NCBI GenBank assembly: GCA_963706025.1
Contig: CAVPLM010000005.1
Location: forward strand, 1,088,001-1,152,000
Length of the DNA: 64,000 nucleotides
Direction of reading: 5' to 3'
DNA from: an uncultured Actinomycetes bacterium
GTDB taxonomy: Bacteria > Actinomycetota > Thermoleophilia > RBG-16-64-13
A model generated the notes under the pieces. The model was not told the origin of the DNA. It saw nothing but the letters and a program-made list of their open reading frames with translations, and ran no database searches. The position numbers and the translations under genes are program-made. Numbering within the stretch: the first letter of the stretch is position 1; each line of letters opens with the position of its first letter. Below are positions 1 through 20,510 of the stretch, piece by piece.

Positions 1-268
1 GGTCCAGGACGGCGGCGACGGTGGCCGCGGTCTGCTTTTCTTTGTAGGGTGCGGTGGTGGAGGCGAAATACACCCCTCCGATCAATGCGCGGTCCACACC
101 TTTCAGGCAGTCCCGGGCTGCAGCCACAGCCATGGTGAGACTGTCCTCGTCGTAGCTGGCGACGGCCCGCTCGCCCGGTGGGGCCGCGCAGCCCCATGCC
201 CGCGCTATCTCCGCCCGGCTGAGCCGGAACAAAGGTATGTACGCTCCGTAAGAGGCTATTCCGGCCAT
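1..268 (-). CDS. HMG-CoA synthase/PhlA-like thiolase-fold protein, 5' part (runs off window start)
   Basis: Hand translation from ATG 268: MAGIASYGAYIPLFRLSRAEIARAWG...ERAVASYDEDSLTMAVAAARDCL...YFASTTAPYKEKQ. The GAYIP and DEDSLTMA motifs are typical of the HMGS-like family. It starts 9 bp after the previous gene's stop. Confidence 0.8.
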   Translation of the reverse strand, partial: MAGIASYGAYIPLFRLSRAEIARAWGCAAPPGERAVASYDEDSLTMAVAAARDCLKGVDRALIGGVYFASTTAPYKEKQTAATVAAVLD

Positions 269-277
269 ATCAGTCTC

Positions 278-1108
278 TCACTTGCTCAGCACGATCTCGC
301 CGAGAGACTGGTCTTTCGATGTCTTCGTCTTCACACTCTCGGCCTTGTATCCCGGAGCCGCGACCTTGACCGTGTACTCGGTGTTCTCCGCCAGCCCTTC
401 GAACTCGAAATCGCCGAAACCGTTGGTCTTGGTGCTCCGGCTCCCGCCGTTGCCGCTCAAGACCACTTCCACGTCCTTGGCTACCTCATCTATATCGCCG
501 TAGACGACGGTGCCGGCCACGAACTTCTTGGGCAGATGCCGGTAGGTGACCTTCTCTCCCATGACGTATTCGGGGCCCAGGACCTCGGTGGCCCCGGCGG
601 CCACCAGTCTGGCCACGGCACTGGCGGGGTCGTCCAGATCACCGAAGACGAGCGCGCCTGAGGGGCACGATTCCACGCAGCGGGGCTCAGGCTCGCCCGC
701 GTCTAGGAGATGGGCGCAGAAGGTGCACTTCTGGGCCAGCTGGAGCTCCTCGTTCCACTCGATTAGGCGATAGGGGCAGGTCTTGACCAGGCCCTTGTTG
801 CCCTTGGCCTTCTCGGGATCGATGAGGACGATGCCGTCCGCCCGGCGGTAGATGGCCCCGGACTGGTCCAGCTTGACGCAGGCGGCCTCGGCGCAGTGAC
901 TGCAGGTCACGGGGACGTGGTCCACCTTGACGTGCGGATACTGACCACGCTCGATCTCAAGAACTTTCATCCAGTTCATGCCGCTCATGGGCTGGGCGGC
1001 GGAGTAGCCGGGATACTCATTACCGGCGTATTCGTCGCGGCAGGTGAGGAAGCAGTTGTAGCACCCCACGCACTTGTCGACCTCGATCACCATTCCATAT
1101 CTGGTCAC
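278..1108 (-). CDS. 4Fe-4S beta subunit of a DMSO-reductase-family enzyme, pyrogallol transhydroxylase small-subunit type with C-terminal beta-sandwich domain
   Basis: Cys motifs CVGCYNC..C, CSHC...C, CPY, CTFC...CVESCP; extra C-terminal domain (TKTNGFGDFEFEGL); directly follows the Mo subunit. Confidence 0.85.
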   Translation of the reverse strand: MTRYGMVIEVDKCVGCYNCFLTCRDEYAGNEYPGYSAAQPMSGMNWMKVLEIERGQYPHVKVDHVPVTCSHCAEAACVKLDQSGAIYRRADGIVLIDPEKAKGNKGLVKTCPYRLIEWNEELQLAQKCTFCAHLLDAGEPEPRCVESCPSGALVFGDLDDPASAVARLVAAGATEVLGPEYVMGEKVTYRHLPKKFVAGTVVYGDIDEVAKDVEVVLSGNGGSRSTKTNGFGDFEFEGLAENTEYTVKVAAPGYKAESVKTKTSKDQSLGEIVLSK

Positions 1109-1112
1109 TTCG

Positions 1113-3644
1113 CTACGCCTCCCACTTCGAGACTTCTACGAGAAAGGACATGTTGGCTTCGCCGTATGCGTTCTTGCTGGTCATGCGCGAATGCGACAGC
1201 AGGTTCACGCACCCGCCTCGGTCGATTGACTCGGCCACGCCCGGCTCCAACGGATCGTACTTGGCCGCGGCCTGGTAGGAATGGAGCAGTCCCGGACGGC
1301 AGCGTTCGGTCACCAGAGCCACACCGAGCACGCGGGCGCGGTCGTTGTAGACCATGACGATGTCGCCGTCCTTGATGCCCCGCGCTTCCGCGTCGGCAGG
1401 GTTCATGCGCATGGGCCAGTAGGCGTACCCGTTTTTGACGATGCGGTGCTGCCGTATGTCGTTCAGCCACTCGATCTTGTCGTCCTGGTGGGTGTGGTAG
1501 GAGAACCTGGCGTGCGGCGTCATGATGATGAGGGGGTACTTCTTGGCCAGTTCCGACTCGTGCCCCTCATAGAGAGGGATGTAGCGCGGCATGGGCGGCC
1601 GTTCCTCGTCGTCGGGGAAGTACTCCTGGAGTCTCGTCCGCACGAACTCGATCTTGCCGCTCGGGGTAGCCAACTCGGTGGCTTTGTCGGTCCCCTGCAG
1701 CGGGTTGAAGCGGTCGGGGGTGTCGACCGGCCGACCCTCGTAGTACCACTTGTTGGAGACGGTGGGCTTGTAGTCCTCAGGTAGCGACGGCACCACGAAG
1801 TAGCCCTTTTCTTTAAACTCCTCGTAGGTTACGTGCTTGGGCAGGTCGGTGTAGTCGAAGACCTTCCGTATCCAATCCTCTTCCGAGTTGCCCTCGGTGT
1901 ACTCCTCCAGGAAGCCCAGGCGCTCGGCCAGTTCGCAGTAGATCTGGTAGTCGGGCTTGGATTCCCACAGAGGCTCGATGCACTTCTGCTGGTACATGAG
2001 GATGCGGTGGTTGCAGTTGACGTTGCCGTTGCCGTAACCACCTGGCTGGGCCCACTCGGAGATGTCTTGGTGCTCGAAGTTGGTACTTGCCGGCAGGATG
2101 ACATCGCCGAAGGTGGTCTCACTCTGCCAGTGGCAGTCCTGCATGACCACGAACTCCAGCTTGGGCGACTGGTACATCCGCACCCATTTGCTGGTGTCGG
2201 TCATAGTGGAGATGAAGGAGCCGCCATGGCGGTGGATCATCCGGATCTCGGCGCCGTTCGGACCGGGCTCGGGGTACTGCATGGGCTTGAACTGCTGCTC
2301 GGCATACTGCACGCAGAAGCCTTCGCCCAGCCACTCTATGTGGCCGTCCAGGATCGCTTCGGGCAGGAGAACACGGTAGACCTTCTGAGTGACCTGGTTA
2401 CGGTCCGGGAAGGTGGGCTGCTTGGCGACCAAGCCGAAGACGTCCCACCCCACGTCGGAATAGCCGGCGCTCTTGAAGCTCATGTCGAGCGGTGCGCCGT
2501 GAGCGGTACCGCCCCAGAGGTTGACCCCGTCCTTACCGATACCCGTCATGGCAGCCAGGTGGATCATAAGGCTGCACCACTCGGTGGCATACGAGTTGCG
2601 GCAGGCGCCGGCGGTGCCGTACTGGGTGCCGGTAGCGATCATGGTCTTCTTGGACGCCCACTGCTGAGCCACCGCCTTGATGGTGTGAGCGGGGATGTCA
2701 CAGATGGGGGCAGCCCACTCCGGAGACTTGGGGATACCATCGGTCTCGCCCAGGATGTAGGCCTTCCACTCGTCGAAGTGGACGGTGCGGTTTTCGATGA
2801 ACCAGTGGTCGTAGGTGTCATCTACGATCCACTGGTAGGCGATGGCCTGCGCCAAAGCGGCGTCGGTGCCGGGCCGCGGAGCCAGCCACTTGTCGGCCAT
2901 ATGCGCTGCGGTGGCGTTGCAGTACGGGTCGATGAAGATGCCCGTGACACCCAGTTCCCTGAGCCACTCCCTCCAGATGACGGTCTCCTGGCCGCCGTAG
3001 CCACCGGCAGACGTGTTGGGATCCACGGACCAGTAGATGACCTGCTCGGTGTGCTTCAGGGCCTCGGCCAGCATGTCGAAGGCGTCGCTCTGGCCGAATC
3101 TCCAATACCAACCCCAGGTGTGCACGCTGCCCCAGTGCCAGCCTTCCCAGGAATCGGGGTTATCCAGGAGCTGGGTGTAGCCCAGGATGTTGTAGAAGCG
3201 GGGCATGGGGCCCATCTTGTAGTAGAGGAGACCGTAGTTGTGGTGGGAGGACACAAAGGCCGTGATGGCCGCCTTCCCGTAGGTACCCTGGATGCGCTTG
3301 ATCTCGCTCGTGACGATGTCCAGTGCCTCGTCCCAGCTGATGCGCACGTATTCGTCCTTGCCCCTGAGCTCGGGATGCCGCTCGCCGTTGGGGTCGAAGT
3401 TCTTGCGCTTCATGGGATACTTGATGCGGTTCTCCGCATAGACGCGCATGCGCTCGGCTATGTTGAAGGAGTTGATGGTGGTCTTCCGGGGATCGGAGAA
3501 CTTCTTGCCCTTGGCCTCGATGGTCCAGTGGCCGCCGTCCTCTTCGGTCAGACGCAGGGGGCGCATGCGGGTGATGACCCCGTCCTTGACGGTGACCTTC
3601 ACCATGCCCCCGATGCAACAGTTGATGAATTCTTGCTCTGCCAT
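1113..3644 (-). CDS. Molybdopterin oxidoreductase alpha subunit, pyrogallol hydroxytransferase (AthL)-like, copy 2
   Basis: 843 aa; RIKYPMKR, NPDSWEGWHWG (putative Ser Mo ligand), PRPGTDAALA, GDVILPAST, and a C-terminal molydopterin-binding domain; no Tat signal and no N-terminal FeS motif. Confidence 0.85.
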   Translation of the reverse strand: MAEQEFINCCIGGMVKVTVKDGVITRMRPLRLTEEDGGHWTIEAKGKKFSDPRKTTINSFNIAERMRVYAENRIKYPMKRKNFDPNGERHPELRGKDEYVRISWDEALDIVTSEIKRIQGTYGKAAITAFVSSHHNYGLLYYKMGPMPRFYNILGYTQLLDNPDSWEGWHWGSVHTWGWYWRFGQSDAFDMLAEALKHTEQVIYWSVDPNTSAGGYGGQETVIWREWLRELGVTGIFIDPYCNATAAHMADKWLAPRPGTDAALAQAIAYQWIVDDTYDHWFIENRTVHFDEWKAYILGETDGIPKSPEWAAPICDIPAHTIKAVAQQWASKKTMIATGTQYGTAGACRNSYATEWCSLMIHLAAMTGIGKDGVNLWGGTAHGAPLDMSFKSAGYSDVGWDVFGLVAKQPTFPDRNQVTQKVYRVLLPEAILDGHIEWLGEGFCVQYAEQQFKPMQYPEPGPNGAEIRMIHRHGGSFISTMTDTSKWVRMYQSPKLEFVVMQDCHWQSETTFGDVILPASTNFEHQDISEWAQPGGYGNGNVNCNHRILMYQQKCIEPLWESKPDYQIYCELAERLGFLEEYTEGNSEEDWIRKVFDYTDLPKHVTYEEFKEKGYFVVPSLPEDYKPTVSNKWYYEGRPVDTPDRFNPLQGTDKATELATPSGKIEFVRTRLQEYFPDDEERPPMPRYIPLYEGHESELAKKYPLIIMTPHARFSYHTHQDDKIEWLNDIRQHRIVKNGYAYWPMRMNPADAEARGIKDGDIVMVYNDRARVLGVALVTERCRPGLLHSYQAAAKYDPLEPGVAESIDRGGCVNLLSHSRMTSKNAYGEANMSFLVEVSKWEA

Positions 3645-3648
3645 ACCT

Positions 3649-6214
3649 TTACGCCTCCCACTTTGCGATCTCGACCAGGCAGGAATTCTGGGCTTCGCCC
3701 GGGACGTTCTTTGAGACCAACTTGCTGGGGGTCAACAGGTTGACGCAGCCGCCCCTGTCGGGGCTGCCGGCCTTGCCCGGCTCCAGCGGATCGTACTTAG
3801 CCGCCGCTTCGTATGAGTGGACGGTCCCCGGCCTCACCCGTTCGGTCACCAAGGCGGCACAGATGACCGTGCCGCGGTCGTTGAAGACCTTCACCAAGTC
3901 GCCATGCTTGATGCCGCGCGCCTTGGCATCCTCCGGGTTGATGCGCACCGGCCAATAAGCGTAGCCGTCCACCTTGACCCGGTGCTGCGGTATGTCGTCC
4001 AGCCAGAAGCTCTTGTTGTCGTGATGGGTGTGATACGAGAACCGCGGATGCGGTGAGATCATCTGTAGTGGCCACTTCTCGACAAGACCCTTGGTGTCGT
4101 AGCCTTCCCAGCTGGGGATGTACCGGGCCATGGGCGGCCGCTCTTGGTCGTTCGGGTCGAAGGCCATGAGGGTCTGGGACACGAACTCCACCTTACCGCT
4201 GGGAGTGGCCAGGTTGGGCCCATTGAACGGCGGGTTCGGAGGATTCCTCTTCTCCGAGGGCACGTCAGCGTCGCGGCCCTCATAGAACCAGCGGAAAGAG
4301 ACCTTGGGCTCTTCATCATCGGGTCTACACGGCACCACGAAGTAGCCCTTCCTCTTGAACTCCTCGTAGGTGATGTACTTGGGCAGGTCGGACTTCTTGA
4401 AGACGATGCGGTTCCAGCCCTCGATATCGTGGCCTTCGGTGTACTCGTCCTTGAAGCCCAATCTCTCAGCCAGAAGCGTGTAGATCTCGTAATCGGGCTT
4501 GGACTCCCACAGCGGCTCGATGCACTTGTGCTGGTAGATGCAGATGCGGTGGTTGGCGTTGAAGTCGTTGAACCCGTAGCCGCCCGCTGCACCCCACTCT
4601 GAGAGGTCGGAGTGCTCGAAGTTGGTGCTGGCGGGCAGGATGACGTCGCCGAACTTGGTCTCGCTCTGCCAGTGGCAGTCCTGCATGACTACGAACTCGA
4701 GGTTGGGGTGCTGATACATCTGCACCCACCTGTTGGTCTCGCTCATGGTGCTGATGAACGAACCGCCGTGGCGGTGGATCATCTTGATGGGAGCGCCGTC
4801 GGGCCCTTCCTCCGGACAGGTGAAGCGATGGAACTGCTGCTCGATGTTCTGGCCGCAGAAGCCTTCGCCGATCCAGCTCACCGGGGGGTTCATGACGATC
4901 TCCGGCAGCAGAAGACGGTACGTCTTCTGAGTCACCGGGTTGCCGACAGGGAAGTACGACTTTTCCGCCACAGTCCCGAAGGCGTCCCAACCGTTGTCGG
5001 AGTAGCCGAACATGTGGAAGCCCATATCGAGGGGCGAACCTTTGCCGGTGCCTCCCCAGAAGTTGACCCCCGGCTTGCCGAAGCCCTGCATGGCCATGAG
5101 GTAGATGCACAGGCGGCACCACTCGGTGGCGTACGCCTGACGGCAGGCGCCGGCGGCTCCAAAGATGCTGGCCACGGCCAACATGGTCTTCTTGGCCGCC
5201 CACTCGCGCGCCAAAGCCGTGATGGTGTGAGCCGGGACGTCACAGATAGGCGCCGCCCACTGCGGGGTCTTGGGCGTTTTGTCCTCGCCCTGGCCCAGGA
5301 TGTGCTTCTTCCATTCGTCGAAGCCGTAGGTCCGGTTCTCGATGAAGAAGTGATCGTAGGTGTCATCGGTGAGCCACACGTACGCGACGGCCTCCGCCAG
5401 CGCAGCGTCGGTGCCCGGGCGCGGAGCGATCCACTTGTCGCCCATGGTGCTCATGGTGCAGTTGTTGTGGGGGTCGATGACCACGAACTGGATGCCCAGC
5501 TCCTTCATCCAGTGCCGCCAGATGAGGTTCTCTTGGCCGCTGTACATGTAGGAGGTGCTGTTCGGATCCACCGACCAGAAGATGATCTGCTCGGTGTGCT
5601 TGAGCGCATCCTGCAGCAACTCGGACTGCTCGCAATGACCGAGGCGCCACCAGTAGCCCCAGGCGTGCGTCGCCCCCCAGTGCCACCCCTCCCAGCTATC
5701 GGGGTTGTCGAGGCACATGCTGTAGCCCAGGATATTGAAGAAGCGGCCGAGAGGGCCGAGTTTGTAGTGCAGGAAGCCCCAGTTGTGGTGCGAGGAGGTC
5801 ATGGCGGTGATGGCCGCCCGGCCGTACGTTTCCCGGATGCGGGTGATCTCCCCCGCCACGAGGTCGAGGGCCTCATCCCAGGAGATGCGCACGTACTCGT
5901 CCTTGCCGCGAAGCTCCGGATGGCGGTCGCCGGCGGGGTCGAAGTTCTTGCGTCGCATCGGATACTGGATGCGATTGTTGTAGACACGCTGCCGCTCGGG
6001 CACTTCCCAGCGACTGCAGCGTGGTCTTGCGCGGTGGGGTGTATTTCTTCCCCCGCGCCTCGATGGTCCACGACGGAGCGTCAGACTCGTCGAAGATGAT
6101 GGGGCGCATCCGGGTGATGACGCCGTCCTTCACATAGACCCTGACGGGTCCACCGACCGTGCACTGTATGAACACCTGTTCATCTGACATCCCACTACTC
6201 TGGTCGAAGGACAT
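3649..6214 (-). CDS. Molybdopterin oxidoreductase alpha subunit, AthL-like, copy 1 (one apparent +1 frameshift near 6010)
   Basis: ORF 5873..6277 gives the N-terminus (QCTVGGPVRVYVKDGVITRMRP...PPRKTT) and ORF 3649..6003 the rest; removing one base near 6010 joins them; AAGGAG RBS before ATG 6214; NPDSWEGWHWG motif. Confidence 0.8.
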
Positions 6215-6291
6215 TGCATTCTCCTTCAGCGGGGCGTGGCTGTCGTGCTTCTGGCTCCCCATGGGGGCCAGAAGCACAGTGGTCAGGCCGG

Positions 6292-7485
6292 CTAGAGTTC
6301 GACAAACTGGATGAAGACCGGGTTCTGAACCGGGACTTCCGTCAGGACCTTCAGGCTTCCATCATTTGCGTCTACCGCATATGACCGGATCACATCCGCC
6401 GGGCGATCCGGGACGAGCAGGAATGCGCCGTCGGGCGAGAGCGTCATGCAGCGTGTTGCGTCTTTGGGATCCTCAGATTTGCTTAGCTCAACCCGTCCAG
6501 CCTTCTTGAGATGGCCATCCTCAGAGATGCTGAACCAGACGACGTCATCTTGTCCCCGGTTGTTCATATACACGAAACGGCCGTTCGGATGCACCTGCAA
6601 GGTGGCCGTCTCGTTGCGTCCCGTGAACCCGGAGAGCGTCGATTGCTTGTCGATGAAACTCAGCACCCCGCTGGAACTATCGAAGTCGAAGGACCAGAGT
6701 TCAGAAGAGAACTCGCACGTCATGAACATGCGGCCTTTCCTATCAAAGGCAGCATGCCTGGGACCGGTTCCCGCCGGGCACTGGTAAACAGAGGCGAGCG
6801 TCAGTCTTCTTCCTCCGATCCGGTAGACGTAGATCCGCTCCCCTGCCTTTTCGCACACCACCAGGAACTTGCCTGAGGGGTCGATCACGACGATGTGCGC
6901 GTGAGGACTGGCCTGCGCGTGGCCTCCGCCCTGCGGGGAATCGTTCGGATCCGTGCCATATCCGGTCAGTACATGCACGTCTTGAACTTCACCGATGGAA
7001 CCGTCCTCTTCAAGCCCGTACTGGACGACCGTCGAATCGTCATATTCGAACTTCTCCACCCACTTGCCATCAGCAATCTCGACCGCTTTAACCACGTGAT
7101 CGAAGAAGCCATGGTTGGCAGTGAAGAGGAGCTTCTTGTCTTCGTCAACGGTTATAGAGGCCGGCATTGCCCCCAAAGACGGCTGCCTGTTCAGAAAGGT
7201 CAACTGTCCGGACTGCGGATCCACCTTGAACGCTAGTACGCCCGAGGCCGGCTTCTTGGGTCCTCGTCCGTCGGTCTTCCTTTCGTCGACCGCATAGAGG
7301 ACCTTCGCTTCTGGTGCATAGGCGAGATATCCCGCCCTCTTCGGCATATCCTCCACACCGCCTGGAAAGGGCGTGATGCTGCTTCCATCCGCGCTGATTT
7401 CAAAGACCGAGATGCCGCCGCCCTCAAATCTATCAACGTGATTGCGTCCCACGTAAGCAATCAGCCGCTTCTTGTCCGTGCTCAC
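6292..7485 (-). CDS. Lactonase family beta-propeller (6-phosphogluconolactonase/cycloisomerase 2-like)
   Basis: SPHAHIVVIDPSGKF, GTGPRHAAF and VHPNGRFVY motifs. Confidence 0.85.
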   Translation of the reverse strand: MSTDKKRLIAYVGRNHVDRFEGGGISVFEISADGSSITPFPGGVEDMPKRAGYLAYAPEAKVLYAVDERKTDGRGPKKPASGVLAFKVDPQSGQLTFLNRQPSLGAMPASITVDEDKKLLFTANHGFFDHVVKAVEIADGKWVEKFEYDDSTVVQYGLEEDGSIGEVQDVHVLTGYGTDPNDSPQGGGHAQASPHAHIVVIDPSGKFLVVCEKAGERIYVYRIGGRRLTLASVYQCPAGTGPRHAAFDRKGRMFMTCEFSSELWSFDFDSSSGVLSFIDKQSTLSGFTGRNETATLQVHPNGRFVYMNNRGQDDVVWFSISEDGHLKKAGRVELSKSEDPKDATRCMTLSPDGAFLLVPDRPADVIRSYAVDANDGSLKVLTEVPVQNPVFIQFVEL

Positions 7486-7515
7486 GTCTCTTCTCCTGTC
7501 TAGCGTTCTGTTCTC

Positions 7516-8670: not shown

Positions 8671-8698
8671 GATCTCTCTCCTTTGTTCTCTTACGCCA

Positions 8699-9211: not shown

Positions 9212-9212
9212 C

Positions 9213-10332: not shown

Positions 10333-10432
10333 GGAGGGTTCCCCTCCGGAGTGATGGCGCCGGCTCGGTGCGGGGGGTGCATACACGAGCCGGCGCCATG
10401 ATCAAAGGGGGATCACACCGTTGGGTGCCACA

Positions 10433-11746: not shown

Positions 11747-12297
11747 TTCTTCACCGCCTCAGCCAGGGACCGAAGGAAGCGCATCACAAAGATGGGGATC
11801 ATGGTGAAGATCCCGAAGGCGGCCAGATACGTGAACGGGTAGATCTCGATGGGGACGTTGCGTGTCCGCTGGTTGGCCTCCTGGTAGGTCATGGCCAGCT
11901 TCACCAGTTGCCAGCACAGGATGCAGAAGATGGCTATGCCCAGGAGATAGATGATCGGCTGGACGATCAGTTGCACCCGCTTCGGCAGGTGCTTGGCCAC
12001 GATGTCGACCGTCATCTTCTCGTGCCGCCCCATGTGCTCGTAACCGATAACCAAGAAGGTGATGACCACCAGCCCCAACTGGGTGATCTCGGTCGACCCC
12101 TTGAGAGGCGCATTGAAGAAGCGGCGCCCGATGATCGACCAGATCATCGCCAGGACCATCGCTCCCAGGGCCGCGGCTCCGATGTACGCAAGCCACTTGT
12201 AGATAGGCTTGATGAAGGCCTCGACGGAGTCCGCGGCCTTGGCAAGGCCGGTGGTCGGCACTGCGGCCGCGCCCTCGGGTTGCCCGTGTTCACTCAT
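11743..12297 (-). CDS. dctQ: TRAP transporter small permease
   Basis: 184 aa with 4 TM segments; located between dctP and dctM, 4-bp overlap with dctM. Confidence 0.9.
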   Translation of the reverse strand: MSEHGQPEGAAAVPTTGLAKAADSVEAFIKPIYKWLAYIGAAALGAMVLAMIWSIIGRRFFNAPLKGSTEITQLGLVVITFLVIGYEHMGRHEKMTVDIVAKHLPKRVQLIVQPIIYLLGIAIFCILCWQLVKLAMTYQEANQRTRNVPIEIYPFTYLAAFGIFTMIPIFVMRFLRSLAEAVKK

Positions 12298-12364
12298 GCG
12301 TGTCCTCCAACTGGGTCGATCGGCCCCGGCCGGGATGGCCGGGGCCGATCGTCATCGCGTTGGC

Positions 12365-13816
12365 TTACGGGATCATGTACTCGTAGGTAGCGCCACCGTG
12401 CGCAACATCGGTGGCGACGATCTTCGCGAGGCCGGCGACTCCGGAGTAGTCGAGCACGCCCTCCGCCGCCTCGGGGATATCAAGCGGGCCGAGGCTCTTG
12501 CCGCTTGCGTCGAAGCCCTCGACCTTGGCACCGAACGGACCTTCTGTGGAGACCGCGAACTGCTGCCCCGGCTCAGGCACGATTGTGAGCTTGACCTTGC
12601 TGTTGCCCAGGTCTTCGAAGAAGATCCCGGTGGTTCCGGCCGGTGCGGTGGTGGTGGTCACCTCGGTCGGGGCCATGGCGCCGTACTTTTCGACGAGTTG
12701 GACGGCCTGATCAAGCACCGCCTGAGCCTCGCCACCGGTCTCCTGCACCCACGTGCCCCACACCGGCTCGGCAGCGGCCTTCCACAACGCCAGCTCTTCC
12801 GCGGTGGGCACATAGATAGGAGGATTGCCCGCACCCTTGTCGGACCCTTCGATAGCGGCCTTGTCCTCCGCCGCCAACGCCTCGTTCGCCGCGTTGTAAG
12901 CCGAGAAGGCGTCGGGATTGCTGACGCTCACGATCTGGTCCTGAAGCACCTTGGGCATGGAATCCCAGACATCCTTGTTCAGGATCAGGGCGAAGGCGCG
13001 GTAGAACATGTCGGTCTCAGTACGGTACTGGGTGACGTCTTTGATCCCGGTGATCAGGGCGAAGGAGTAGCTGAGGAAGCAGGAGTCGGCCATGCCTCTT
13101 TCCATGGAGGTCGCCAGTTCACCTGTGCTGATCTCCACCGGAGTCGCGCCAAGAGCCTCGATGAGCCAGGCCTCGATCTGTCCGCCCGACCGCACCCTCT
13201 GGCCGGTCATGTCGGCGGGGACTTTGGCCTCTTTGCTACCGAAATACTGGGCCGGAGCGATGACTGGGCAGCCCACCAGCACTACATCCTTCCATTCCTC
13301 GGCAGCGGGAGAGTCGGTGAGGATATCCCAGTAGACCCGGCCCGTCACTTCGGCGCTGGGGAACATCTGCGGCAGGCCGTAGAATTCCGACAGCGGGAAG
13401 CGGCCCGGAGTGGCGTCGGCCGTCAGCGAGGCGATGTCGGCAAGACCGGAGGTGACGGCGTCGTACTGGTCGGCCTCTTTCACCAAGGTCTCTTCGGCAT
13501 ACAGTTCGATGGTCACGCGATTGTTGGTCGCCGCCGCGACCGCGTCAATCCACGGCTTGTAGTAGGCCCCGACGATGCTGGCCCTGTCCGGGACGTGGAT
13601 GGACATCTTCAGTTCGTAGGTCTGCCCGGTGTCGGGCACTCCGGCCACCGTGGTGGTGGTCTCGGGTGCCGCGGTGGTCTCGGTGCTCGGAGCCGCAGTG
13701 GTCACCGGCGCGGCGGTGGTGGTGGTCTCTTCTTCGCCGCAGGCCGCCATCAGCGTAGCGAGACCCAGCGCCAATACCAGGGCCAGCAGGCCGACGGCCC
13801 ATTTTCTTTTCTTCAT
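12365..13816 (-). CDS. dctP: TRAP substrate-binding lipoprotein with Thr-rich linkers and an extra C-terminal domain
   Basis: MKKRKW signal peptide with lipobox (MAAC); DctP motifs (DAVTSGLADIA, PGRFPL, DMTGQRVRS, LGATPV). Confidence 0.88.
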   Translation of the reverse strand: MKKRKWAVGLLALVLALGLATLMAACGEEETTTTAAPVTTAAPSTETTAAPETTTTVAGVPDTGQTYELKMSIHVPDRASIVGAYYKPWIDAVAAATNNRVTIELYAEETLVKEADQYDAVTSGLADIASLTADATPGRFPLSEFYGLPQMFPSAEVTGRVYWDILTDSPAAEEWKDVVLVGCPVIAPAQYFGSKEAKVPADMTGQRVRSGGQIEAWLIEALGATPVEISTGELATSMERGMADSCFLSYSFALITGIKDVTQYRTETDMFYRAFALILNKDVWDSMPKVLQDQIVSVSNPDAFSAYNAANEALAAEDKAAIEGSDKGAGNPPIYVPTAEELALWKAAAEPVWGTWVQETGGEAQAVLDQAVQLVEKYGAMAPTEVTTTTAPAGTTGIFFEDLGNSKVKLTIVPEPGQQFAVSTEGPFGAKVEGFDASGKSLGPLDIPEAAEGVLDYSGVAGLAKIVATDVAHGGATYEYMIP

Positions 13817-13960
13817 CTCACTCCCCCTCTGCAATATCCGATAGCTCGTCTTCATGCAACTGTCTTTTGGGACCCGACAAAGCCGTGTGCCTGTGTTTCC
13901 ACCCCCTCCATTCTCGACCCATCGCCCACCGAGTTCTGTTTCGAACCAAGTGAGCGGCTG

Positions 13961-14033
13961 CTTCGTATCGGAGTTCGTATACGAAGCGCTCTCACGACCA
14001 CCTGTGTTTACACCGGTACCGATCCGTTGTCCA
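13961..14033 (-). promoter_or_regulatory. Operator copy 2 and candidate promoter for the TRAP operon
   Basis: CTTCGTATCGGAGTTCGTATACGAAG at 13961-13986; minus-strand TGGACA-N17-TAAACA at 14033-14005. Confidence 0.7.
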
Positions 14034-14136
14034 TCACTTTAGTTGGTAAACTTTGGTCGAGGCTAAGGTTGAGTGGAGCAGGGGGTCCCTTTCTGAGGAT
14101 GGTAGACGTGTCTCTTGCCGAGGCATCGTGACGGCC

Positions 14137-15279
14137 ATGTTCGGTGCGGTGCCCGTCAGACTATGGTCTATGACCACTCGGGTCGCGAGGAACCCACACT
14201 TCTGGGTGGTGGTCGTTCTCTCCGCCATACTTCTATTCATATACCAGGCTTGGCCTTGGCCCGAGTCACGGTTCAACAGCGGAGTGTGGCGTTCTTTCTC
14301 CTGGTTGTCCGCGCTCGAATCCCTCGTCATAGAGGTGGAGCTCAAGTACCATCTGTTCGGCGCGTTGTTCTTGATACCGATCCTATATGGTTCGCTGACC
14401 CTGTCGTGGACCGGAGGCATCTTCGCCTGGTGTTTGGCGCTGATCTGGGTGTTGCCGACCGTTCTTTCGTGGTCGAGCGCCCCGCTGCTGCTCAACCTCA
14501 CCCTCCTCCTCTTGCCCGTGTTGCTCGTAGCCATCATCAGCGGGGAACGACGATGGCGCGAGAACAAAAGACGCTACTTCGCCGAGCGCGAACGAGAGCG
14601 ACAGGCGTACATCGCCAAGCTGGTCGAGACCGAAGAGATAGAACGTAGACGTATCGCCCAGGAACTCCACGACGAGACCCTCCAGACTCTTATGGTCATC
14701 GCGAACAAAGCGGATTCCCTCGCCCTGTCGGGAACCGATGAGAGGCAGGTCAGAGGCAATCTATGGATCAAGCAGGAAGTGCTTCAGACGATGGACGACC
14801 TGAGGCGACTGAGCATGAACCTGCGACCGAGCGTGTTGGACAACTTTGGCCTCGTCTCCGGGGTCAGATGGCTGATCAACAACAGCAACAGCCAGAACGG
14901 TTGCCATCTGGACGTCGCCGTGATCGGCGAGGAGCGGAAGATGTCGAGCCTCTCCGAAGTCACCGCGTTCCGGGTCGTCCAGGAGGCGATCAACAACATA
15001 CAGCGGCACGCGTACGCGAAGAGCGGTACCGTCAGTCTGGAGTTCGGAGACGACCGCCTGCTACTGCAGGTCAAGGACGACGGCGTGGGCTTTCGGCCAC
15101 CCGATAGACTTGCGGTTTACGTGGTCGAGAGCAAGCTGGGCATGATGGGGATGGAGCAGAGGGTACTTTCGGTCGGAGGTGAGATCAGCGTCGACTCCAG
15201 CCCCGGGGAAGGCACAAGAATCTGGGCCTCAGTCCCCTACACGGCCTCAGCCCAGGTCTTCCAGGGTGAGAATGCCTGA
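14137..15279 (+). CDS. Membrane sensor histidine kinase (HisKA_3, NarX/DesK-like)
   Basis: N-terminal TM helices; ERRRIAQELHDETLQ, QEAINN, DDGVGF, GEGTRI; start codon uncertain (14053/14137/14170). Confidence 0.9.
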   Translation: MFGAVPVRLWSMTTRVARNPHFWVVVVLSAILLFIYQAWPWPESRFNSGVWRSFSWLSALESLVIEVELKYHLFGALFLIPILYGSLTLSWTGGIFAWCLALIWVLPTVLSWSSAPLLLNLTLLLLPVLLVAIISGERRWRENKRRYFAERERERQAYIAKLVETEEIERRRIAQELHDETLQTLMVIANKADSLALSGTDERQVRGNLWIKQEVLQTMDDLRRLSMNLRPSVLDNFGLVSGVRWLINNSNSQNGCHLDVAVIGEERKMSSLSEVTAFRVVQEAINNIQRHAYAKSGTVSLEFGDDRLLLQVKDDGVGFRPPDRLAVYVVESKLGMMGMEQRVLSVGGEISVDSSPGEGTRIWASVPYTASAQVFQGENA

Positions 15280-15927
15280 CTTGAGACTGACGAAGATGGC
15301 CTCCGTCCGCGAGCGCACGTTCAGCTTCTGAAACACATCTACGAAGTAGCTTTTGACCGTGGCTTCACTGATCCCCAGATTGGCCCCTATCTCCTTGTTG
15401 GAGAGGCCCCTGGCCGCCAGAGTGAGAACCTCCATGCCCTTCGCCGAGAGCTTCTCCTGATCGACCTGCTTGATCGGCCTGACGACGTGCTGCAGCGCGT
15501 ACTTGAGGACCTCTTGGGACACCTCTGGGGACAGCACCATGTCGCCGTCCATGACGGCCCGAATGGTGTGGATCACCTCGGGACCGAAGATCGACTTGAC
15601 GAGGTACCCGCTGGCCCCGGCCTGCAGGATGCTGAAGATCGTCTCGACGTCGGTATGGACGGTGAGGATCAGCACCGCGGTGAGAGGGTCGGCTGCTTTG
15701 ATCCGCTTGGTGGCCTCGACTCCGTTCATGGTGGGCATGCTGATGTCCATGATGACGATGTCCGGGCGATGCTCCCCGGTCATGGTCACGGCCTCCTGGC
15801 CGTCACCGGCCTCACCGATGACGCGAAGATCCGGCTCCTTTTCCAGGATGTCGCGCAGAGCGCGGCGGACGAGGGGATGATCGTCCACCAGGAGGATCCG
15901 GGTCTCTTGCTGTTCAGCCGATTCCAC
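15247..15927 (-). CDS. NarL/LuxR-family response regulator
   Basis: LLVDDHPLVR, IMDISMP, GASGYLVK, GLSNKEIG...KLNVRSRTEA. Confidence 0.92.
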   Translation of the reverse strand: MESAEQQETRILLVDDHPLVRRALRDILEKEPDLRVIGEAGDGQEAVTMTGEHRPDIVIMDISMPTMNGVEATKRIKAADPLTAVLILTVHTDVETIFSILQAGASGYLVKSIFGPEVIHTIRAVMDGDMVLSPEVSQEVLKYALQHVVRPIKQVDQEKLSAKGMEVLTLAARGLSNKEIGANLGISEATVKSYFVDVFQKLNVRSRTEAIFVSLKSGILTLEDLG

Positions 15928-16118
15928 TTCGGGGTCTCTCCCTGCCGCGCTTCCACCAGCTCGGGTCAGTGACCTGTCGCAGCCTCACCTGTCGCAGCCT
16001 CTGGTCTCTAATCATATAGTAGGAAGTGGATGCAGGTGAAAAACGGGGAGCGGCTCCGCGCGGGGCGCCTGTTCTCGGCGAGCGCATGAGGCAGACCCCA
16101 CGCGGGATACGACGTGAT

Positions 16119-16140
16119 AAGATATATCTTGATATATCTA
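16119..16140. promoter_or_regulatory. AT-rich palindromic operator-like site upstream of the His-rich ORF
   Basis: AGATATATC-TT-GATATATCT (16120-16139) is both a direct and an inverted repeat within GC-rich DNA. Confidence 0.55.
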
Positions 16141-16172
16141 GACACAGCGTATCCGACTGCTGGAGGACCGAC

Positions 16173-16475
16173 TTGCAGCACCACAAGCACCACCATAAAC
16201 ACCACCGCGACCATGACCACGGACGTGACCACGGACATGGCAACCACCCCCACGGCTCTCCGCACGAGCACGGTCACCACGATCGGGCATCGCATTCCTC
16301 TGGTGGGGCGGACTACTCACCCGGAGCCCAATGGCCCTCTGTTGCCTGCGAATCAAGCCCCGCCGGGCACGTGACGCCCTCTCCCGCAGACGCAGCCCTC
16401 GAGGGTTGCCCGAAGCGAGGCGGCTCGAGCGAGTGCCTGGGAGATTGCCGAACCTGTCCCTACCGGGGGCTCTAG
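16173..16475 (+). CDS. Small His-rich, Cys-tailed putative metal-binding protein (100 aa)
   Basis: GGAGG RBS then TTG at 16173; 18 His in the first 41 residues; C-terminal C-x8-C-x3-C-x2-CP. Confidence 0.5.
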   Translation: MQHHKHHHKHHRDHDHGRDHGHGNHPHGSPHEHGHHDRASHSSGGADYSPGAQWPSVACESSPAGHVTPSPADAALEGCPKRGGSSECLGDCRTCPYRGL

Positions 16476-16524
16476 ATCAGGACGACACCGGTCGAGCCCA
16501 CAAGCCGGGCGTGACTCGCCCCCG

Positions 16525-17340
16525 TCACCCCACCAGTTCGGGCGACAGTTTCAGCCGCTCCACCACCTCGTCGACGGTCGCCGGCTCGAGGTTCATCGAC
16601 CTCGCCACGCCCACGAGTTGCTCGACGAGCTGAGCGTTGGAGGTGGCCAGCTCCTTCGGCCTGACGTAGAGCGTGTCCTCGAGACCGGTGCGCGCGTTGC
16701 CGCCCATGGCCAGACCGATGGTGGTCAGCGGCAGGTTGGCCTTCGAGATGGCGATCACCTGCCAGCTGGTGTTCGGGGGCAACTCGCGGACGAGATAGGA
16801 GAGCAGCATGGGATCGGCCGGCATGCCGCCCTTGACACCCATGACGAACGAGACCTGCAGCGGTTCGGTGAGGAGGTCCCTCTTGAGGAGGTCCAGCATC
16901 AGGCCAAGGTGCCCGGTGTCGTAGATCTCGACCTCCGCCTTCACGCCCAGCTCGCGCATGCGCGCAGCCAGCTGAAGCATCTGCTTCGGCGGGTTCCGGA
17001 ACTCGATCTCGCCGATGGTCATGGTGGCGGGATTCAAGCTGGCCATGGCCGGCTTTGCCTCCACGATCTTCATGCGGTCCTCGTAGGGGAACCCGCCGCC
17101 AGTGGAGAGCTGCACGATACCTGGACACTTCTCGCGCACCAAATCCACCGTGCGCCGCGCCACGTCCAGGTCGGTGGTGAAATCGTCGTTGTCCCGCAGA
17201 TGGATGTGGATAACGGCGGCGCCGGCCTCGTAGGCTCCCTTGGCGCTTTCGGCGATCTCCTCCGGGGAGCCCGGCATCGCGGGGCTGTCCTTCTTGGTGG
17301 CGGCGGGGCCGGTGAGCGAGGCGGTGATGATCGGGTTCAT
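16525..17340 (-). CDS. Beta-keto acid cleavage enzyme (BKACE/DUF849, Kce-like)
   Basis: IITASLTG, EAGAAVIHIHLR, STGG, ASLN, ARTGLED motifs. Confidence 0.92.
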   Translation of the reverse strand: MNPIITASLTGPAATKKDSPAMPGSPEEIAESAKGAYEAGAAVIHIHLRDNDDFTTDLDVARRTVDLVREKCPGIVQLSTGGGFPYEDRMKIVEAKPAMASLNPATMTIGEIEFRNPPKQMLQLAARMRELGVKAEVEIYDTGHLGLMLDLLKRDLLTEPLQVSFVMGVKGGMPADPMLLSYLVRELPPNTSWQVIAISKANLPLTTIGLAMGGNARTGLEDTLYVRPKELATSNAQLVEQLVGVARSMNLEPATVDEVVERLKLSPELVG

Positions 17341-17510
17341 GGTGTGAGGCCTCCTAGCAGAGCGTTGTGCATGAGAACGTTGTAGACAGAGTGTTGCGCG
17401 TCGTGTCGATCAGTGGGTCGCGCAGCAGTATGCCGCCTCCGAGCCCACGCGTTCCGCGAAAGCGGTCTTTTCATAGGCGCGCGACCTTCTTCCCGGCCTG
17501 AGCGGGCCGC

Positions 17511-18268
17511 TCAGACCGCGGACAGTCCACCGTCGACGTAGATGATCTGCCCGGTCATGAAGTCCGATTCGTCCGACGCCAGCAGGATGATGGGACCGAA
17601 TAGGTCCTCCGGCGCGCCCAGGCGGGACAGCGGGATCTCCGCCGTCATCTTGGAGTAGATCTCCGGCTTGGAGAGGAATTCACGGGTCATGTCGGTGATG
17701 ACGAGCGCCGGCGCGATGGCGTTCACGTTGATGTTGTACTTGGCCCACTCCGCCGCCAAGGTCCGGGTCAGCTGGTCCACGCCGCCCTTGCTCGTGGCGT
17801 AGGCTGAACCACCGATCGAGGGGGCGACCCGTCCTCTCACCGAGGACATGTTGATGATCTTGCCGCGCTTCTGCTCGATCATGACTCTGCCCACAGCCTG
17901 GCACGCCAGGAACATACCGACGATATTGAACTTGACGACCCTCTCGAACTCCTCCGGAGGCATCTCCTCCGCCGAGAAGCGTGCGTTGGTACCGGCGATG
18001 TTGACGAAGGATGTCGATCTTGCCGAACTCCTTCATCGACCTGGTCGACCATGTCCTTCATCGCAGAGGCGCTGGTGACGTCGGCCGAGACGGCCAAGGC
18101 CTTGCGTCCCGTCCCTTCGATGTCCTTGACCACCGCCTCCAGGTGCCCCGGGTCGAAGTCGGCGGCGACCATGTCCGCGCCGCACTGTGCCAGACGGACG
18201 GAGATCGGTCGCCCCAATCCGCCGCCAGCCCCCGTTACGACCGCAACCTTGCCTGTCAGATCGAACAT
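17511..18268 (-). CDS. Short-chain dehydrogenase/reductase (two apparent +1 indels near 18005-18040)
   Basis: MFDLTGKVAVVTGAGGGLG; YATSK catalytic motif; NVNAIAP; TGQIIYVDGG; split over three frames. Confidence 0.85.
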
Positions 18269-18333
18269 CGGACCTCCTTGAGTTTCTGGAAAAACGACGG
18301 GCATCTTGTCGCCCTGCCTCAGTCGCGGCTCAC

Positions 18334-19285
18334 TCAGTCGCGGCTCATGAACAGCTTGAGTTGCGGCAGCAGCCGGCGATTCTTCTCTTCGAGGACTTCC
18401 GCGCGCGTCTTGCCGCTGTAGTCGTACCAGCCCTTGCCCGACTTGATCCCCAACTCGCCTTTGTTGACCTTCTCCACCAGGATCGGCGACGGTTCGGTCG
18501 CGTTGCTCAGGCCCTTGAACACCCGGCCCGATACCACCATGGCGATGTCGAGACCGATCATGTCCTCCACCTCCATGGGGCCCAGGCAGGCGAACCTGAA
18601 ACCGGTGCTGCTCTTGATGGCGATGTCCAGGTCCTCGGGGGTCACGATCCCTTCGTCGAGCAGGTAGTCGATCTCCCGCTCGATCGCGCCCATGATGCGG
18701 TTCACGATGAAGCCCGGCACCTCTTTGCGCACGAGCACGGTCTTCTTGCCCGAGGCCTCCATGAGGCGCTTGGTCTCCTCGAAAGCGGCATCAGAGGTCT
18801 CGCTGCCCCGGTGGATCTCGACCAAGGGGATGATGTGCCCGGGATTGAAGTAGTGGATGCCGATGATGTTATCGGGATTCGGCATCCCCTCGGCCAGCGA
18901 ATCGACCGTCAGGCTGCCGGTGTTGCTCCCGATGATCACATCCGGGTTGGCCGCCTGGATGAGCGCCCAAGAGAGCCCTCTTGTCGTCGAGGATCTCGCG
19001 GATCGTCTCCACCACGTAGCTGCATCCCTCGACCGCTTGGACCATGTCGGTGGTGACCATGCCCTCGATGCGGTCCATCACTTGGTCGACCGTCTCCTCG
19101 ATCAGGTCGAATTCGATGAACTGCTGGATGTTGTGGCGAAGCTGCTCGAGAGCCCGGGTCAGCGGCTCTTCACGGCGCGCCACGAGCCGTACGTCGAACC
19201 CGTTCTGTGCGAAGGTCTGAGCGATGCCTTCGCCCATCGTCCCCGTGCCCACGATCAGTATCTTCTGCGCGTTTCCTGTACTCAT
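18334..19285 (-). CDS. 3-hydroxyacyl-CoA dehydrogenase family protein (frameshift near 18965)
   Basis: ILIVGTGTMGEGIA, SNTGSL, HYFNPGH, VPGFIVNRI, GELGIKSGKGWYDY. Confidence 0.88.
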
Positions 19286-19304
19286 GCTTGACCTCCGGTC
19301 GCGC

Positions 19305-20160
19305 CTACTTCTTGTGCTGGGGCCGATCCCCCAGGAAGTCGGCAGCGATCTTGTCGAAATTGTGCCGAGTGGCCTGCAGCGCAACGGCGTACATCTCGGC
19401 CAGAACGTGGACGCGTTCATCGTCCTGCAGGGCGCGTTTCCACGGGCGCATCACGAGCTCATGGGTTAGGCGGCGGACGGCCCGGCCCTGACTTCATGAT
19501 GTGGTTGGCGATCTCGTAGGCGCGCGGGATGAGCTGGTCGTGCTCGACGATCTCGTTGATGAGACCCCAGTCCAGGGCGGTCTTGGCGTCGATCTTGGGC
19601 TCCATGTAGGCCATGTAGGCCGCCCGCTTCTGCCCGACACACACGCGGTAGGAGAAGTTCATGCCATCGCCGGGAACGATGTTGTGCGAGAAATGGGCAT
19701 CCGAGAAGTAGAAGTCGGGGACGCAGATGGCGATGTCCGCCATCAGGGCGAATTCGTAGTGCTGTCCGATCCCGTTGATGGCGGCGATGACGGGGACTTC
19801 GATGTCGTTGATGAAGTTCTCGACGAAGTTCATCGTGTCTGGAACGTTGCAGTTGTACTTGAGAGCAAGGTCGGTGGAGTCCTCGACTTCATCGAACGAG
19901 GCGGGGTCGCTCCTCTGGGTAATCCAGTAGGGGTCCGCGCAGGTCAGGATGATGATCTCGTTCTGCTTGTCGTGTCCGATGGCGGTCCACAGTTCGCCGT
20001 AAGCATTCTGGGTCTGGTAGCTCCAAACACAGGCCTCGCCTCTCCAGTGAAGACGACAGAGAAGAATGCCGTCCTCCGTGCGCTCCAGGTGGGCGAAATC
20101 CTTGAACCGTTCGCTGTATTCCTCTAACGTTTCCACGTGTACATAAGGCTGCATTGCCAC
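19305..20160 (-). CDS. Crotonase-fold protein of the 6-oxocamphor hydrolase (beta-diketone hydrolase) type (frameshift near 19485)
   Basis: IEVPVIAAING; DAHFSHNIVPGDG matches the His...IVPGDG pattern of 6-oxocamphor hydrolase; after a one-base correction the C-terminus reads RRLTHELVMRPWKR...QHKK* (stop 19305-19307). Confidence 0.8.
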
Positions 20161-20185
20161 GGTTGCTTCCTCCTCCTCTGGGTCT

Positions 20186-20425
20186 CTACATCTCGGCTAT
20201 CTTGTCGTCTTTGTATTCGATGTAATCGAAGTCATGCGCTGATTTGCTCAGGTTGAACGAGTACATCTCCGAGATCACCTGGGTGCGAAGGTACTTCTCG
20301 ACGTACTCACGCCAGGGTTTCACGCAAAGATGATGGGTCATGCGCCGGCAGGAGCGGGTCTTCTGCATGATGTTGCGAGCCAGTTCCCAGGACCTGTCCA
20401 TGATCTTGTCTCTCTCCACGATAAC
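20186..20425 (-). pseudogene. C-terminal remnant of a second crotonase paralog
   Basis: IVERDKIMDRSWELARNIMQKTRSCRRMTHHLCVKPWRE aligns with IVEHDQLIPRAYEIANHIMKSGRAVRRLTHELVMRPWKR of the next gene; the 5' ~200 codons are missing. Confidence 0.75.
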
Positions 20426-20448
20426 GGGTACGATGGATGATCCATTAA

Positions 20449-20510
20449 CTTCGTATCGGAGTTCGTGTACGAAGCCCAGCCAAGCTACCGCCTGGCGAGA
20501 CGAAAGTCAA
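20449..20510 (-). promoter_or_regulatory. Sigma70-type promoter plus operator copy 3
   Basis: Minus strand TTGACT (20510-20505)-N17-TAGCTT (20487-20482), then 7 nt, then CTTCGTATCGGAGTTCGTGTACGAAG (20449-20474); same geometry as copy 1. Confidence 0.75.

Follow-up and report, generated by a model that had tools for sequence, protein, structure and literature searches.

A putative MarR-controlled gene island for the anaerobic degradation of a hydroxy-aromatic acid in an uncultured actinomycetotal bacterium

Why would a bacterium that already appears to carry a canonical phloroglucinol pathway keep a second, differently built set of related genes under its own control, and which compound would this second set degrade? 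The question is raised by a stretch of 64,000 nucleotides (the window; G000:C5:1088001-1152000) from a metagenome-assembled genome (MAG) of an uncultured actinomycetotal bacterium (G000; 3.66 Mb, 92% complete and 7% contaminated). The region of interest is the first 20.5 kb of the window, where about twenty genes include three units, A, B and C, all on the minus strand. We consider it reasonably probable that this island is MarR-repressed and degrades a hydroxy-aromatic carboxylate to acetyl-CoA along a paralogous version of the phloroglucinol pathway, in a host that is apparently an oxygen-avoiding sediment bacterium. An earlier note, made from the letters of this DNA, had proposed a variant of anaerobic trihydroxybenzene catabolism. 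Its general idea stands, but its stepwise mapping from gallate via pyrogallol to phloroglucinol is not supported, given a closer paralogue on another contig (C17) and the relatives of the Amidohydro_2 protein; its proviso that some other hydroxyaromatic compound might be the substrate is now judged the better reading. Families were called by Pfam, which confirmed the labels given in that note, except that "NicX-like" is backed by an AlphaFold model and a Foldseek search.

The three units are tied together by a common operator. The sequence CTTCGTAYACGAACTCYGATACG occurs on the minus strand at 10296-10274 (operator A), 13986-13964 (operator B, between the divergent genes for DctP and a histidine kinase) and 20474-20452 (operator C). 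When the whole genome was scanned with up to three mismatches, these were the only sites found, all in this island, and a reversed-motif control gave none. Compared over 26 nt, operators B and C are identical at 25 positions and A and B at 23. The operator holds a perfect palindrome, TTCGTATACGAA, plus a third TACGAA/TACGTA half-site. Operators A and C each begin at the predicted transcription start, 7 nt past a TTGACT-N17-TAnnnT promoter; the hexamers lie at 10332-10327 (TTGACT) and 10309-10304 (TACCGT) for promoter A, and at 20510-20505 (TTGACT) and 20487-20482 (TAGCTT) for promoter C. At operator B the TTGACT box is absent and a TGTAAACA-like element lies upstream.

The same site recurs in relatives. 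Among 92 loci (1.57 Mb in all, some of them duplicating one another), 42 matches with up to four mismatches were found in 23, and none to the reversed motif. This corresponds to 36 distinct site contexts, the three of the window included, most of which carry the same promoter; all loci with matches are Actinomycetota records or relatives of family f1. The operator copies of the dctP type (L016, L018, L032, L035, L043, L057 and L098) are also devoid of a TTGACT box and have a conserved TGTACATA/TGTAAACA-like element upstream (about 14000-14030 in the window), possibly an activator site, for example for the neighbouring LuxR-type regulator. The features of a MarR-type regulon are present, namely a gene for a MarR-family regulator (8699-9211, minus strand) and a palindromic site that overlaps promoters, that of its own operon included, and the MarR protein is presumed to act as repressor at all three operators. 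The earlier description of three minus-strand units behind one operator is thus confirmed by the genome scan, its control and the recurrence in relatives. A defined repressor site could also help to find the inducer and hence the substrate.

Is the association of these genes more than local? The order lower module (the unit C enzymes), response regulator and histidine kinase, DctPQM, Amidohydro_2, MarR, NicX-like protein, lactonase, the molybdenum (Mo) subunits Mo1 and Mo2, iron-sulfur (FeS) subunit, HMGS/DUF35 and thiolase is kept, with variations, in six related genomes (G001, G003, G004, G009, G016 and G020); the Amidohydro_2 gene is absent from the orthologous clusters of two of them, G009 and G016. 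Among 41 genomes (G000 and 40 relatives), the beta-diketone hydrolase (BDH) of the lower module was found in 8 and the NicX-like protein in 11, so the island is accessory. An alignment-based scan for NicX-like proteins, with one genome per species, gave 76 loci. Counting genes no more than 10 kb away from the NicX-like gene (tblastn, E <= 1e-15, half or more of the query covered), 40 of these loci have the lactonase, 31 an AthL-like Mo gene, 27 the FeS subunit, 20 MarR and 19 Amidohydro_2; BKACE and HMGS/DUF35 follow with 15 each, the thiolase with 14, BDH and the short-chain dehydrogenase/reductase (SDR) with 12 each and the 3-hydroxyacyl-CoA dehydrogenase-family enzyme (HADH) with 8.

Several of these loci bring both halves of the island together. 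In a Clostridiales MAG (L055), genes for Mo, NicX-like protein, lactonase, SDR, BDH, a classical thiolase, BKACE and HADH form one co-directional cluster. Two Dehalococcoidia MAGs (L071 and L103) have Mo, FeS, HMGS/DUF35, thiolase, BKACE, CoA-transferase A/B and NicX-like genes; in addition, L103 carries BDH upstream of Mo, and L071 shows a weak BDH match (43%) with no BDH gene called. An Acidobacteriota locus (L045) combines Amidohydro_2, NicX-like protein, lactonase, BDH, Mo and FeS. The link drawn earlier between the Mo genes and the SDR/HADH/BKACE module is therefore upheld by the shared operator, by the synteny in six relatives and by the single clusters of the Clostridiales and Dehalococcoidia MAGs. 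Neighbourhood conservation, which the earlier note had suggested checking, is found as synteny among related genomes and as an enzyme set in other phyla.

The chemistry of the lower module hinges on a protein of the crotonase superfamily (19308-20160, minus strand; ECH_1 in Pfam). Its PDB matches over nearly the full length are 6-oxocamphor hydrolase (OCH; 1o8u, 3e-29) and the Anabaena beta-diketone hydrolase (ABDH; 2j5g, 1.5e-26). An assignment as enoyl-CoA hydratase was rejected because the OCH and ABDH matches are stronger and near full-length; those to enoyl-CoA hydratases are mostly at about 1e-10 or worse, and the best (7mcm, 7.7e-20) covers the C-terminal half only. Ten BDH sequences, drawn from several phyla, all share H134, H156 and D165, at offsets that fit the OCH match ranges; the catalytic residues of OCH we take to be His122, His145 and Asp154. 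By homology, the "crotonase" is a putative CoA-independent retro-Claisen BDH of the 6-oxocamphor hydrolase type. Retro-Claisen cleavage of cyclic 1,3-diketones is the chemistry needed to open the ring of dihydrophloroglucinol. CoA-free cleavage of such diketones, as proposed here, is common to OCH, the Anabaena enzyme and, according to PMC11780191, the steroid ring-A-cleaving beta-diketone hydrolase of anaerobes; none of these enzymes is reported to use dihydrophloroglucinol.

The BDH gene is accompanied in unit C by genes for an SDR (17511-18268), an HADH (18334-19285; 3HCDH in Pfam) and a beta-keto acid cleavage enzyme (BKACE; 16525-17340, 9.7e-85), all on the minus strand and assigned at the family level only. 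According to PMC10470551, the known phloroglucinol pathway uses SDR, cyclase, 3-hydroxyacyl-CoA-dehydrogenase-family and BKACE enzymes. The Clostridium scatologenes cluster (PGR, DPGC, TfD and TAL; PMC10470551) shares with the island the clustered SDR, HADH-family and BKACE genes with a thiolase nearby, as well as the logic of reduction, retro-Claisen opening, oxidation and cleavage with acetyl-CoA. The island differs in that it is devoid of a cyclase-family DPGC and adds Mo and FeS subunits, a NicX-fold protein, a lactonase, Amidohydro_2, a tripartite ATP-independent periplasmic (TRAP) transporter and MarR. No PF04199 cyclase gene lies in the island; the genome has six copies outside it, and the C17 cluster holds one of these. 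The BDH would thus stand where canonical clusters have their cyclase-family ring hydrolase. Literature searches, which did not reach article supplements, retrieved nothing that links dihydrophloroglucinol to a crotonase-type hydrolase, and the literature searched yielded only one set of genes for the phloroglucinol steps.

What would supply this module with its ring? Unit A encodes two tandem AthL-family molybdopterin alpha subunits, Mo2 (1113-3644, minus strand; 843 aa, intact, with AhtL-like_1st, Molybdopterin and Molydop_binding domains) and Mo1 (3649-6214, minus strand; likely start at 6190 or 6214, one extra base near 6005-6010), followed by an FeS beta subunit (278-1108, minus strand; Fer4_11, 1.9e-25) with a C-terminal CarboxypepD_reg-like domain (3.2e-09). 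Mo1 and Mo2 are 64% identical. Against the AthL subunit of Pelobacter acidigallici (4v4c_A), Mo2 scores 801.9 bits over the full length and an orthologue 91% identical to Mo1 scores 854 bits, while the next family reaches 271 bits; the AhtL-like first domain (PF21423) is present in Mo2 and in the N-terminal piece of Mo1. As in AthL/BthL, an export signal peptide is not evident in the Mo subunits and the beta subunit has an extra C-terminal domain, BthL of Pelobacter being of the same build. The island differs from AthL/BthL in that several AthL insertions are absent and two tandem alpha genes go with one beta gene. In the PDB alignments, for Mo1 through its orthologue, both proteins keep the AthL positions H144, D174, S175, Y404 and Y560. 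We take Ser175 to be the Mo ligand with Asp174 as its neighbour, and assume functional roles for His144, Tyr404, Tyr560 and the pocket residues Arg153 and Trp354. These roles were reportedly described by Messerschmidt et al. in 2004.

Mo1 and Mo2 belong to a crowded family. In G000, 25 tblastn matches cover at least half of Mo2, and 37 of the 41 genomes have Mo2 matches; many genomes of family f1 have 20-30, in comparison with 0-5 weak ones (best E 1e-4 to 5e-15) in same-class genomes outside f1. Environmental relatives found by protein search are 58-88% identical (best 120 of 3011). With about 25 AthL-family genes in this genome and 20-30 in many relatives, the label "pyrogallol hydroxytransferase" is not usable as a substrate call. 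For Mo catechol dehydroxylases, an actinobacterial expression system has been reported (PMC11887054). The genome's closest counterpart of AthL lies on contig C17: this paralogue scores 1297 bits to the Pelobacter protein over 864 residues, retains R153 and W354, and belongs to a canonical cluster in which BKACE, SDR, HADH and cyclase genes are followed by AthL-like Mo and FeS genes (L113 6979-14874). Four more AthL-like genes and further FeS genes stand in a row on the same contig (C17 29176-42293). A third set, HADH-BKACE-SDR-IclR, is found on contig C3, and the lower-module proteins of the window are 32-41% identical to their C17 and C3 counterparts.

A tree of 33 Mo proteins was built with a midpoint root and Shimodaira-Hasegawa-like approximate likelihood ratio support; AthL was not among its rows and the C17 paralogue served as stand-in, and six of the 25 G000 matches were left out, one replaced by the C-terminal part of Mo1 from the window and five partial or weak. 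Mo1 and Mo2 form sister clades (support 100), and each of them is joined by orthologues from five or six genomes; both sit in a clade (95) to which the nine-row clade (100) with the C17 protein does not belong. Taking the bit scores to PDB and the stand-in as proxies, the Mo subunits fall outside the transhydroxylase clade, an outcome that the earlier note had named as counting against its reading; their proposed role as the transhydroxylase is not supported. Because the C17 Mo protein is closer to AthL, belongs to a different clade and has canonical neighbours, the island is, as judged from its sequences, a second, paralogous pathway, and the gallate/pyrogallol route is better placed on C17.

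The following course of events would fit. The TRAP transporter of unit B, a complete set on the minus strand (dctM 10433-11746, dctQ 11743-12297, dctP 12365-13816), would import the acid. Where present, the Amidohydro_2 enzyme (9213-10253, minus strand), which Pfam and PDB matches place in the non-oxidative decarboxylase/hydratase branch, would remove or otherwise handle the carboxyl group of an ortho-hydroxybenzoate. The cytoplasmic AthL/BthL-type Mo enzyme with its two paralogous alpha subunits would then move or add ring hydroxyls to give a 1,3,5-oxygenated ring able to tautomerise to a ketone, and the SDR would reduce this ring to a cyclic beta-diketone. The BDH would open the ring by retro-Claisen hydrolysis, in place of the cyclase-family dihydrophloroglucinol cyclohydrolase, whereupon the HADH-family enzyme would oxidise the resulting 3-hydroxy-5-oxo acid and BKACE would cleave the product with acetyl-CoA. 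Finally, the thiolase would split acetoacetyl-CoA, its catalytically dead HMGS-like/DUF35 partner possibly serving as a scaffold. Two observations agree with an anaerobic route to acetyl-CoA: ADP-forming acetyl-CoA synthetase genes occur in or near the cluster, and searches of the genome (92% complete) gave neither a haem-copper nor a bd oxidase. As the same genome has a canonical pathway with a closer transhydroxylase match, the substrate of the island would differ from gallate and pyrogallol, and is probably a different, substituted or differently hydroxylated benzoate.

A number of points weigh against this scheme. Mo1 and Mo2 are not the closest AthL relatives in the genome, and in both the AthL residue R153 is replaced by Lys, while W354 is replaced by Thr in Mo2 and by Ala in the Mo1 orthologue; given this divergence, even the making of a phloroglucinol-type ring is something we infer. 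None of the SDR, HADH and BKACE proteins, nor any other protein tested, reaches an NCBIfam equivalog cut-off (BKACE scores 249.8 against a cut-off of 382 for Kce and 170.4 against 430 for the 3,5-dioxohexanoate enzyme). In PDB the SDR is matched best by gluconate 5-dehydrogenase-like entries, and none of the 60 matches listed carries the name phloroglucinol reductase. The NicX-like protein and the lactonase have no assigned step in the pathway, and four genes of the window are out of frame as given. Finally, at up to four mismatches, no counterpart of operator C was found upstream of the lower module in G001 and G003, the two same-genus genomes examined, so the regulatory link to unit C is lineage-specific.

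Directly downstream of operator C lies a C-terminal remnant of about 72-80 codons of a second BDH paralogue (20184-20440, minus strand). G003 has an intact paralogue whose C-terminus is 88% identical to this remnant; promoter and operator C seem to have taken the place of the 5' part of the second BDH gene. In G004 an operator site precedes the HADH-SDR genes, the lower module having its own operator and lying directly beside the thiolase gene.

Could the island nevertheless follow the gallate route mapped step by step in the earlier note, as a second copy of the canonical pathway that is redundant or under different regulation? The Amidohydro_2 enzyme would then convert gallate to pyrogallol, Mo1, Mo2 and the FeS subunit would give phloroglucinol, and SDR, hydrolase, HADH and BKACE would complete the degradation. 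There is a candidate for every step, the Ser, Asp, His and Tyr positions of AthL are kept in two full-length homologues, and a TRAP transporter suits a carboxylate such as gallate. Set against this are the higher score of the C17 paralogue beside its canonical cluster (1297 against 802 and 854 bits), the separate clade of Mo1 and Mo2 with their two changed residues, and the low identity of the lower-module proteins to the C17 and C3 sets. The decarboxylation step fares no better. The nearest PDB matches of the Amidohydro_2 protein are LigW2 (1.7e-19), gamma-resorcylate decarboxylase (2.2e-19) and ACMSD (2e-18); the first two, its nearest relatives, act on ortho-hydroxybenzoates, which counts against a gallate decarboxylase, as does the absence of the gene from the G009 and G016 clusters. 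Known gallate decarboxylases belong to a different family (UbiD). We regard the gallate route as unlikely for this island, and a paralogous route for another hydroxybenzoate remains our preferred reading.

A second alternative starts from the two proteins that have no place in the scheme. The NicX-like protein (7516-8670, minus strand) has no sequence match in Pfam, NCBIfam or PDB, although PF26233 (NicX) is recorded for some of its close relatives. An AlphaFold model built on 40 homologues reached a predicted local distance difference test (pLDDT) of 93.4, a single-sequence model (pLDDT 35) being discarded. Its best Foldseek match is NicX, the 2,5-dihydroxypyridine 5,6-dioxygenase (7cn3_A; E 2.3e-19, template-modelling score 0.58-0.66), followed by M29 aminopeptidases, at 12-14% identity; the protein is thus a putative NicX/M29-fold metalloprotein, and many His, Glu and Asp residues are invariant in the family. 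Its relatives number 303 at E <= 0.001, and of the 120 listed, every one that has a name is called "hypothetical". The neighbouring gene encodes a 7-bladed beta-propeller protein of the lactonase family (6292-7485, minus strand; PF10282, 3.6e-65), and the two occur together in several phyla, in 40 of the 76 loci mentioned above. One protein, P0052 (515 aa), combines 78% of the NicX-like query at 81% identity with a lactonase Pfam domain, and may be a fusion or a read-through artefact.

These genes invite the view that the substrate is a heteroaromatic compound or a lactone or pyrone, such as a hydroxypyridine or pyridone carboxylate or triacetic acid lactone, with the NicX-fold protein and the lactonase carrying out the key ring chemistry and the Mo enzyme acting as a hydroxylase. 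The one characterised relative of the NicX fold does act on a dihydroxypyridine and M29 relatives hydrolyse amide bonds, the lactonase gene is conserved beside the NicX-like gene, and in Oscillospiraceae and Lachnospiraceae loci the pair occurs with an ABC transporter only and no Mo gene. On the other side, the SDR/BDH/HADH/BKACE set is best explained by a dihydrophloroglucinol-like carbocycle, and to our knowledge all characterised AthL-family members act on phenols. A heteroaromatic or pyrone substrate is, on balance, improbable. An O2-dependent dioxygenase role of the NicX-like protein is itself unlikely, since no terminal oxidase was found and, in contrast to NicX, the family occurs mainly in MAGs and isolates of anaerobic groups. 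For the hydroxybenzoate pathway that we favour, our guess is that the pair performs a hydrolytic or isomerising step that needs no O2, with the imported compound or the lactone form of an intermediate as its target. No description of a NicX-fold/lactonase pair was found in literature searches that excluded article supplements.

Paralogues of the NicX-like protein also occur in other settings. In gut and rumen Clostridia (L097 from Enterocloster hominis, L051, L052, L061, L063, L064 and L095), proteins 58-65% identical are part of another conserved cluster, with up to three RraA-like aldolases, PIG-L, DUF6282, an oxidoreductase of the thiamine pyrophosphate/ferredoxin type, LysR and a CitMHS or Opp-type transporter; this cluster has neither lactonase nor Mo gene. 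More distant paralogues (about 48-57% identical; L090-L093, L100 and L067) lie beside hydantoinase A/B-type genes and Liv-type ABC transporters.

A third alternative concerns the distal end of unit A. The unit runs past the left end of the window, which holds only the first 89 of the 475 codons of the HMGS-like/DUF35 fusion gene (2-268, minus strand; the remainder is at L004 16841-18268), followed by an SCP-x/archaeal-type thiolase gene (L004 15653-16837) and then a Liv-type ABC transporter. The HMGS-like part matches archaeal HMG-CoA synthase (6esq_I, 1.7e-31) and PhlA (5m3k_A, 5.8e-25), and the DUF35 part matches 6esq_E (1.3e-13). A function as HMG-CoA synthase was rejected, the catalytic Cys of 6esq_I being aligned to Leu here (and to Gly in PhlA). 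The thiolase has its best match in 6esq_A (8.9e-61) and also matches PhlC (1.6e-31). The same three modules are found in the archaeal thiolase/HMGCS/DUF35 complex and in PhlACB; the island differs in the fusion of DUF35 to the HMGS-like protein and in its catabolic context. The thiolase is 85-94% identical to those of the Dehalococcoidia L071 and L103, in comparison with 65-76% for neighbouring genes, which suggests recent transfer or very strong constraint.

Would these proteins act as a C-acyl transferase of the PhlA/PhlB/PhlC type that deacylates an acylphloroglucinol-like substrate, by thiolysis or transfer, and so frees the ring for the lower module? The modules agree, with an HMGS-like protein that has no Cys, a DUF35 domain and an SCP-x-type thiolase that has its Cys; the PDB matches include all three of PhlA, PhlB and PhlC; and in both Actinomycetota and Dehalococcoidia the pair shows tight linkage with the Mo genes. 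Nevertheless, the archaeal acetoacetyl-CoA thiolase complex is the better match for both proteins, and a TRAP transporter points to a carboxylate rather than to a neutral acylphloroglucinol. In addition, the Clostridiales cluster L055 has a classical thiolase instead, as fits acetoacetyl-CoA thiolysis after BKACE, and plain cleavage of acetoacetyl-CoA is favoured accordingly. The deacylase role has little probability in our view, and we retain the thiolase as the last enzyme of the proposed hydroxybenzoate pathway.

Is the island intact? As given, five single-base insertions break four genes: Mo1, the SDR gene twice (at about 18036 and 18005), the HADH gene (about 18958-18965) and the BDH gene (near 19487). 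When one base per break is removed, the reading matches the orthologues residue for residue, and apart from the breaks the frames show neither stops nor substitutional decay. Logan contigs from four runs (X1, X2, X4 and X8), each belonging to a different study, were compared over 600-20550. The extra base is absent in all four runs at both SDR sites (18005 and 18039) and in the HADH gene (at 18958 in X1, at 18960 in X2, X4 and X8). In Mo1 the base at 6010 is absent in two contigs of X8 only; X1 and X2 have no depth there, and X4 covers the site with no base omission among the contig differences listed. The BDH break is read as an error because the orthologues in G001 and G016 are intact. Near its 3' end, the MarR gene has a base at 8709 that is absent in contigs of X2, X4 and X8, though not of X1. 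Sister MAGs with long contigs are broken in a similar manner in other genes (in G001, BKACE is split into four pieces and HMGS into two; in G003, Mo1 into two), which points to consensus errors. It is probable that the breaks are consensus or assembly errors and not decay. That the island is decaying, with real frameshifts, four pseudogenes and a pathway dead in this strain, would accord with the breaks as given, with the second BDH remnant as a trace of past rearrangement at the start of unit C, and with the Mo1 omission in one of two covering runs and a BDH site not among the listed contig differences, but it is improbable when every break is a +1 insertion in an otherwise undecayed frame, three sites lose the extra base in all four runs and the sister genomes are hit in other genes.

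Tentatively, and with more doubt than confidence, the island may be one instance of a new anaerobic pathway for a hydroxy-aromatic acid, shared across at least five phyla by anaerobes from sediments, digesters and guts. The BDH, already a candidate, would in that case be a second, unrelated solution to ring opening, the O2-independent NicX-fold protein and lactonase a new ring-processing step, and the two-alpha Mo enzyme a new specificity in phenol hydroxyl transfer. The "hypothetical" NicX-fold family extends over several phyla and gut Clostridia, with the lactonase as fixed partner. How polyphenols are broken down without oxygen matters for carbon storage in peat and sediments, and for the gut metabolism of dietary phenols.

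The ORF of DctP (496 aa) is a predicted lipoprotein with Thr/Ala/Pro-rich linkers; its PF03480 match ends near residue 368, and an extra C-terminal domain of some 110 aa lies beyond it. The interval between units B and C contains a HisKA_3 histidine kinase gene with membrane segments (14053-15279, plus strand), whose synteny is kept in relatives, and, convergent with it, a gene for a LuxR-type response regulator (15247-15927) on the strand of unit C. The spacer between response regulator and BKACE (15910-16520) shows several skips in the contigs of other runs and is thus strain-variable; it contains a His-rich, spurious-looking ORF (16026-16475, plus strand), and relatives have ADP-forming acetyl-CoA synthetase genes at this position. 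To the right of the island, a perfect 23-nt inverted repeat with a 16-nt loop (21724-21785) is flanked by ORFs labelled by eye as nitrilase-like (20894-21697) and as PhoU/DUF47-like and phosphate permease-like (21794-23599).

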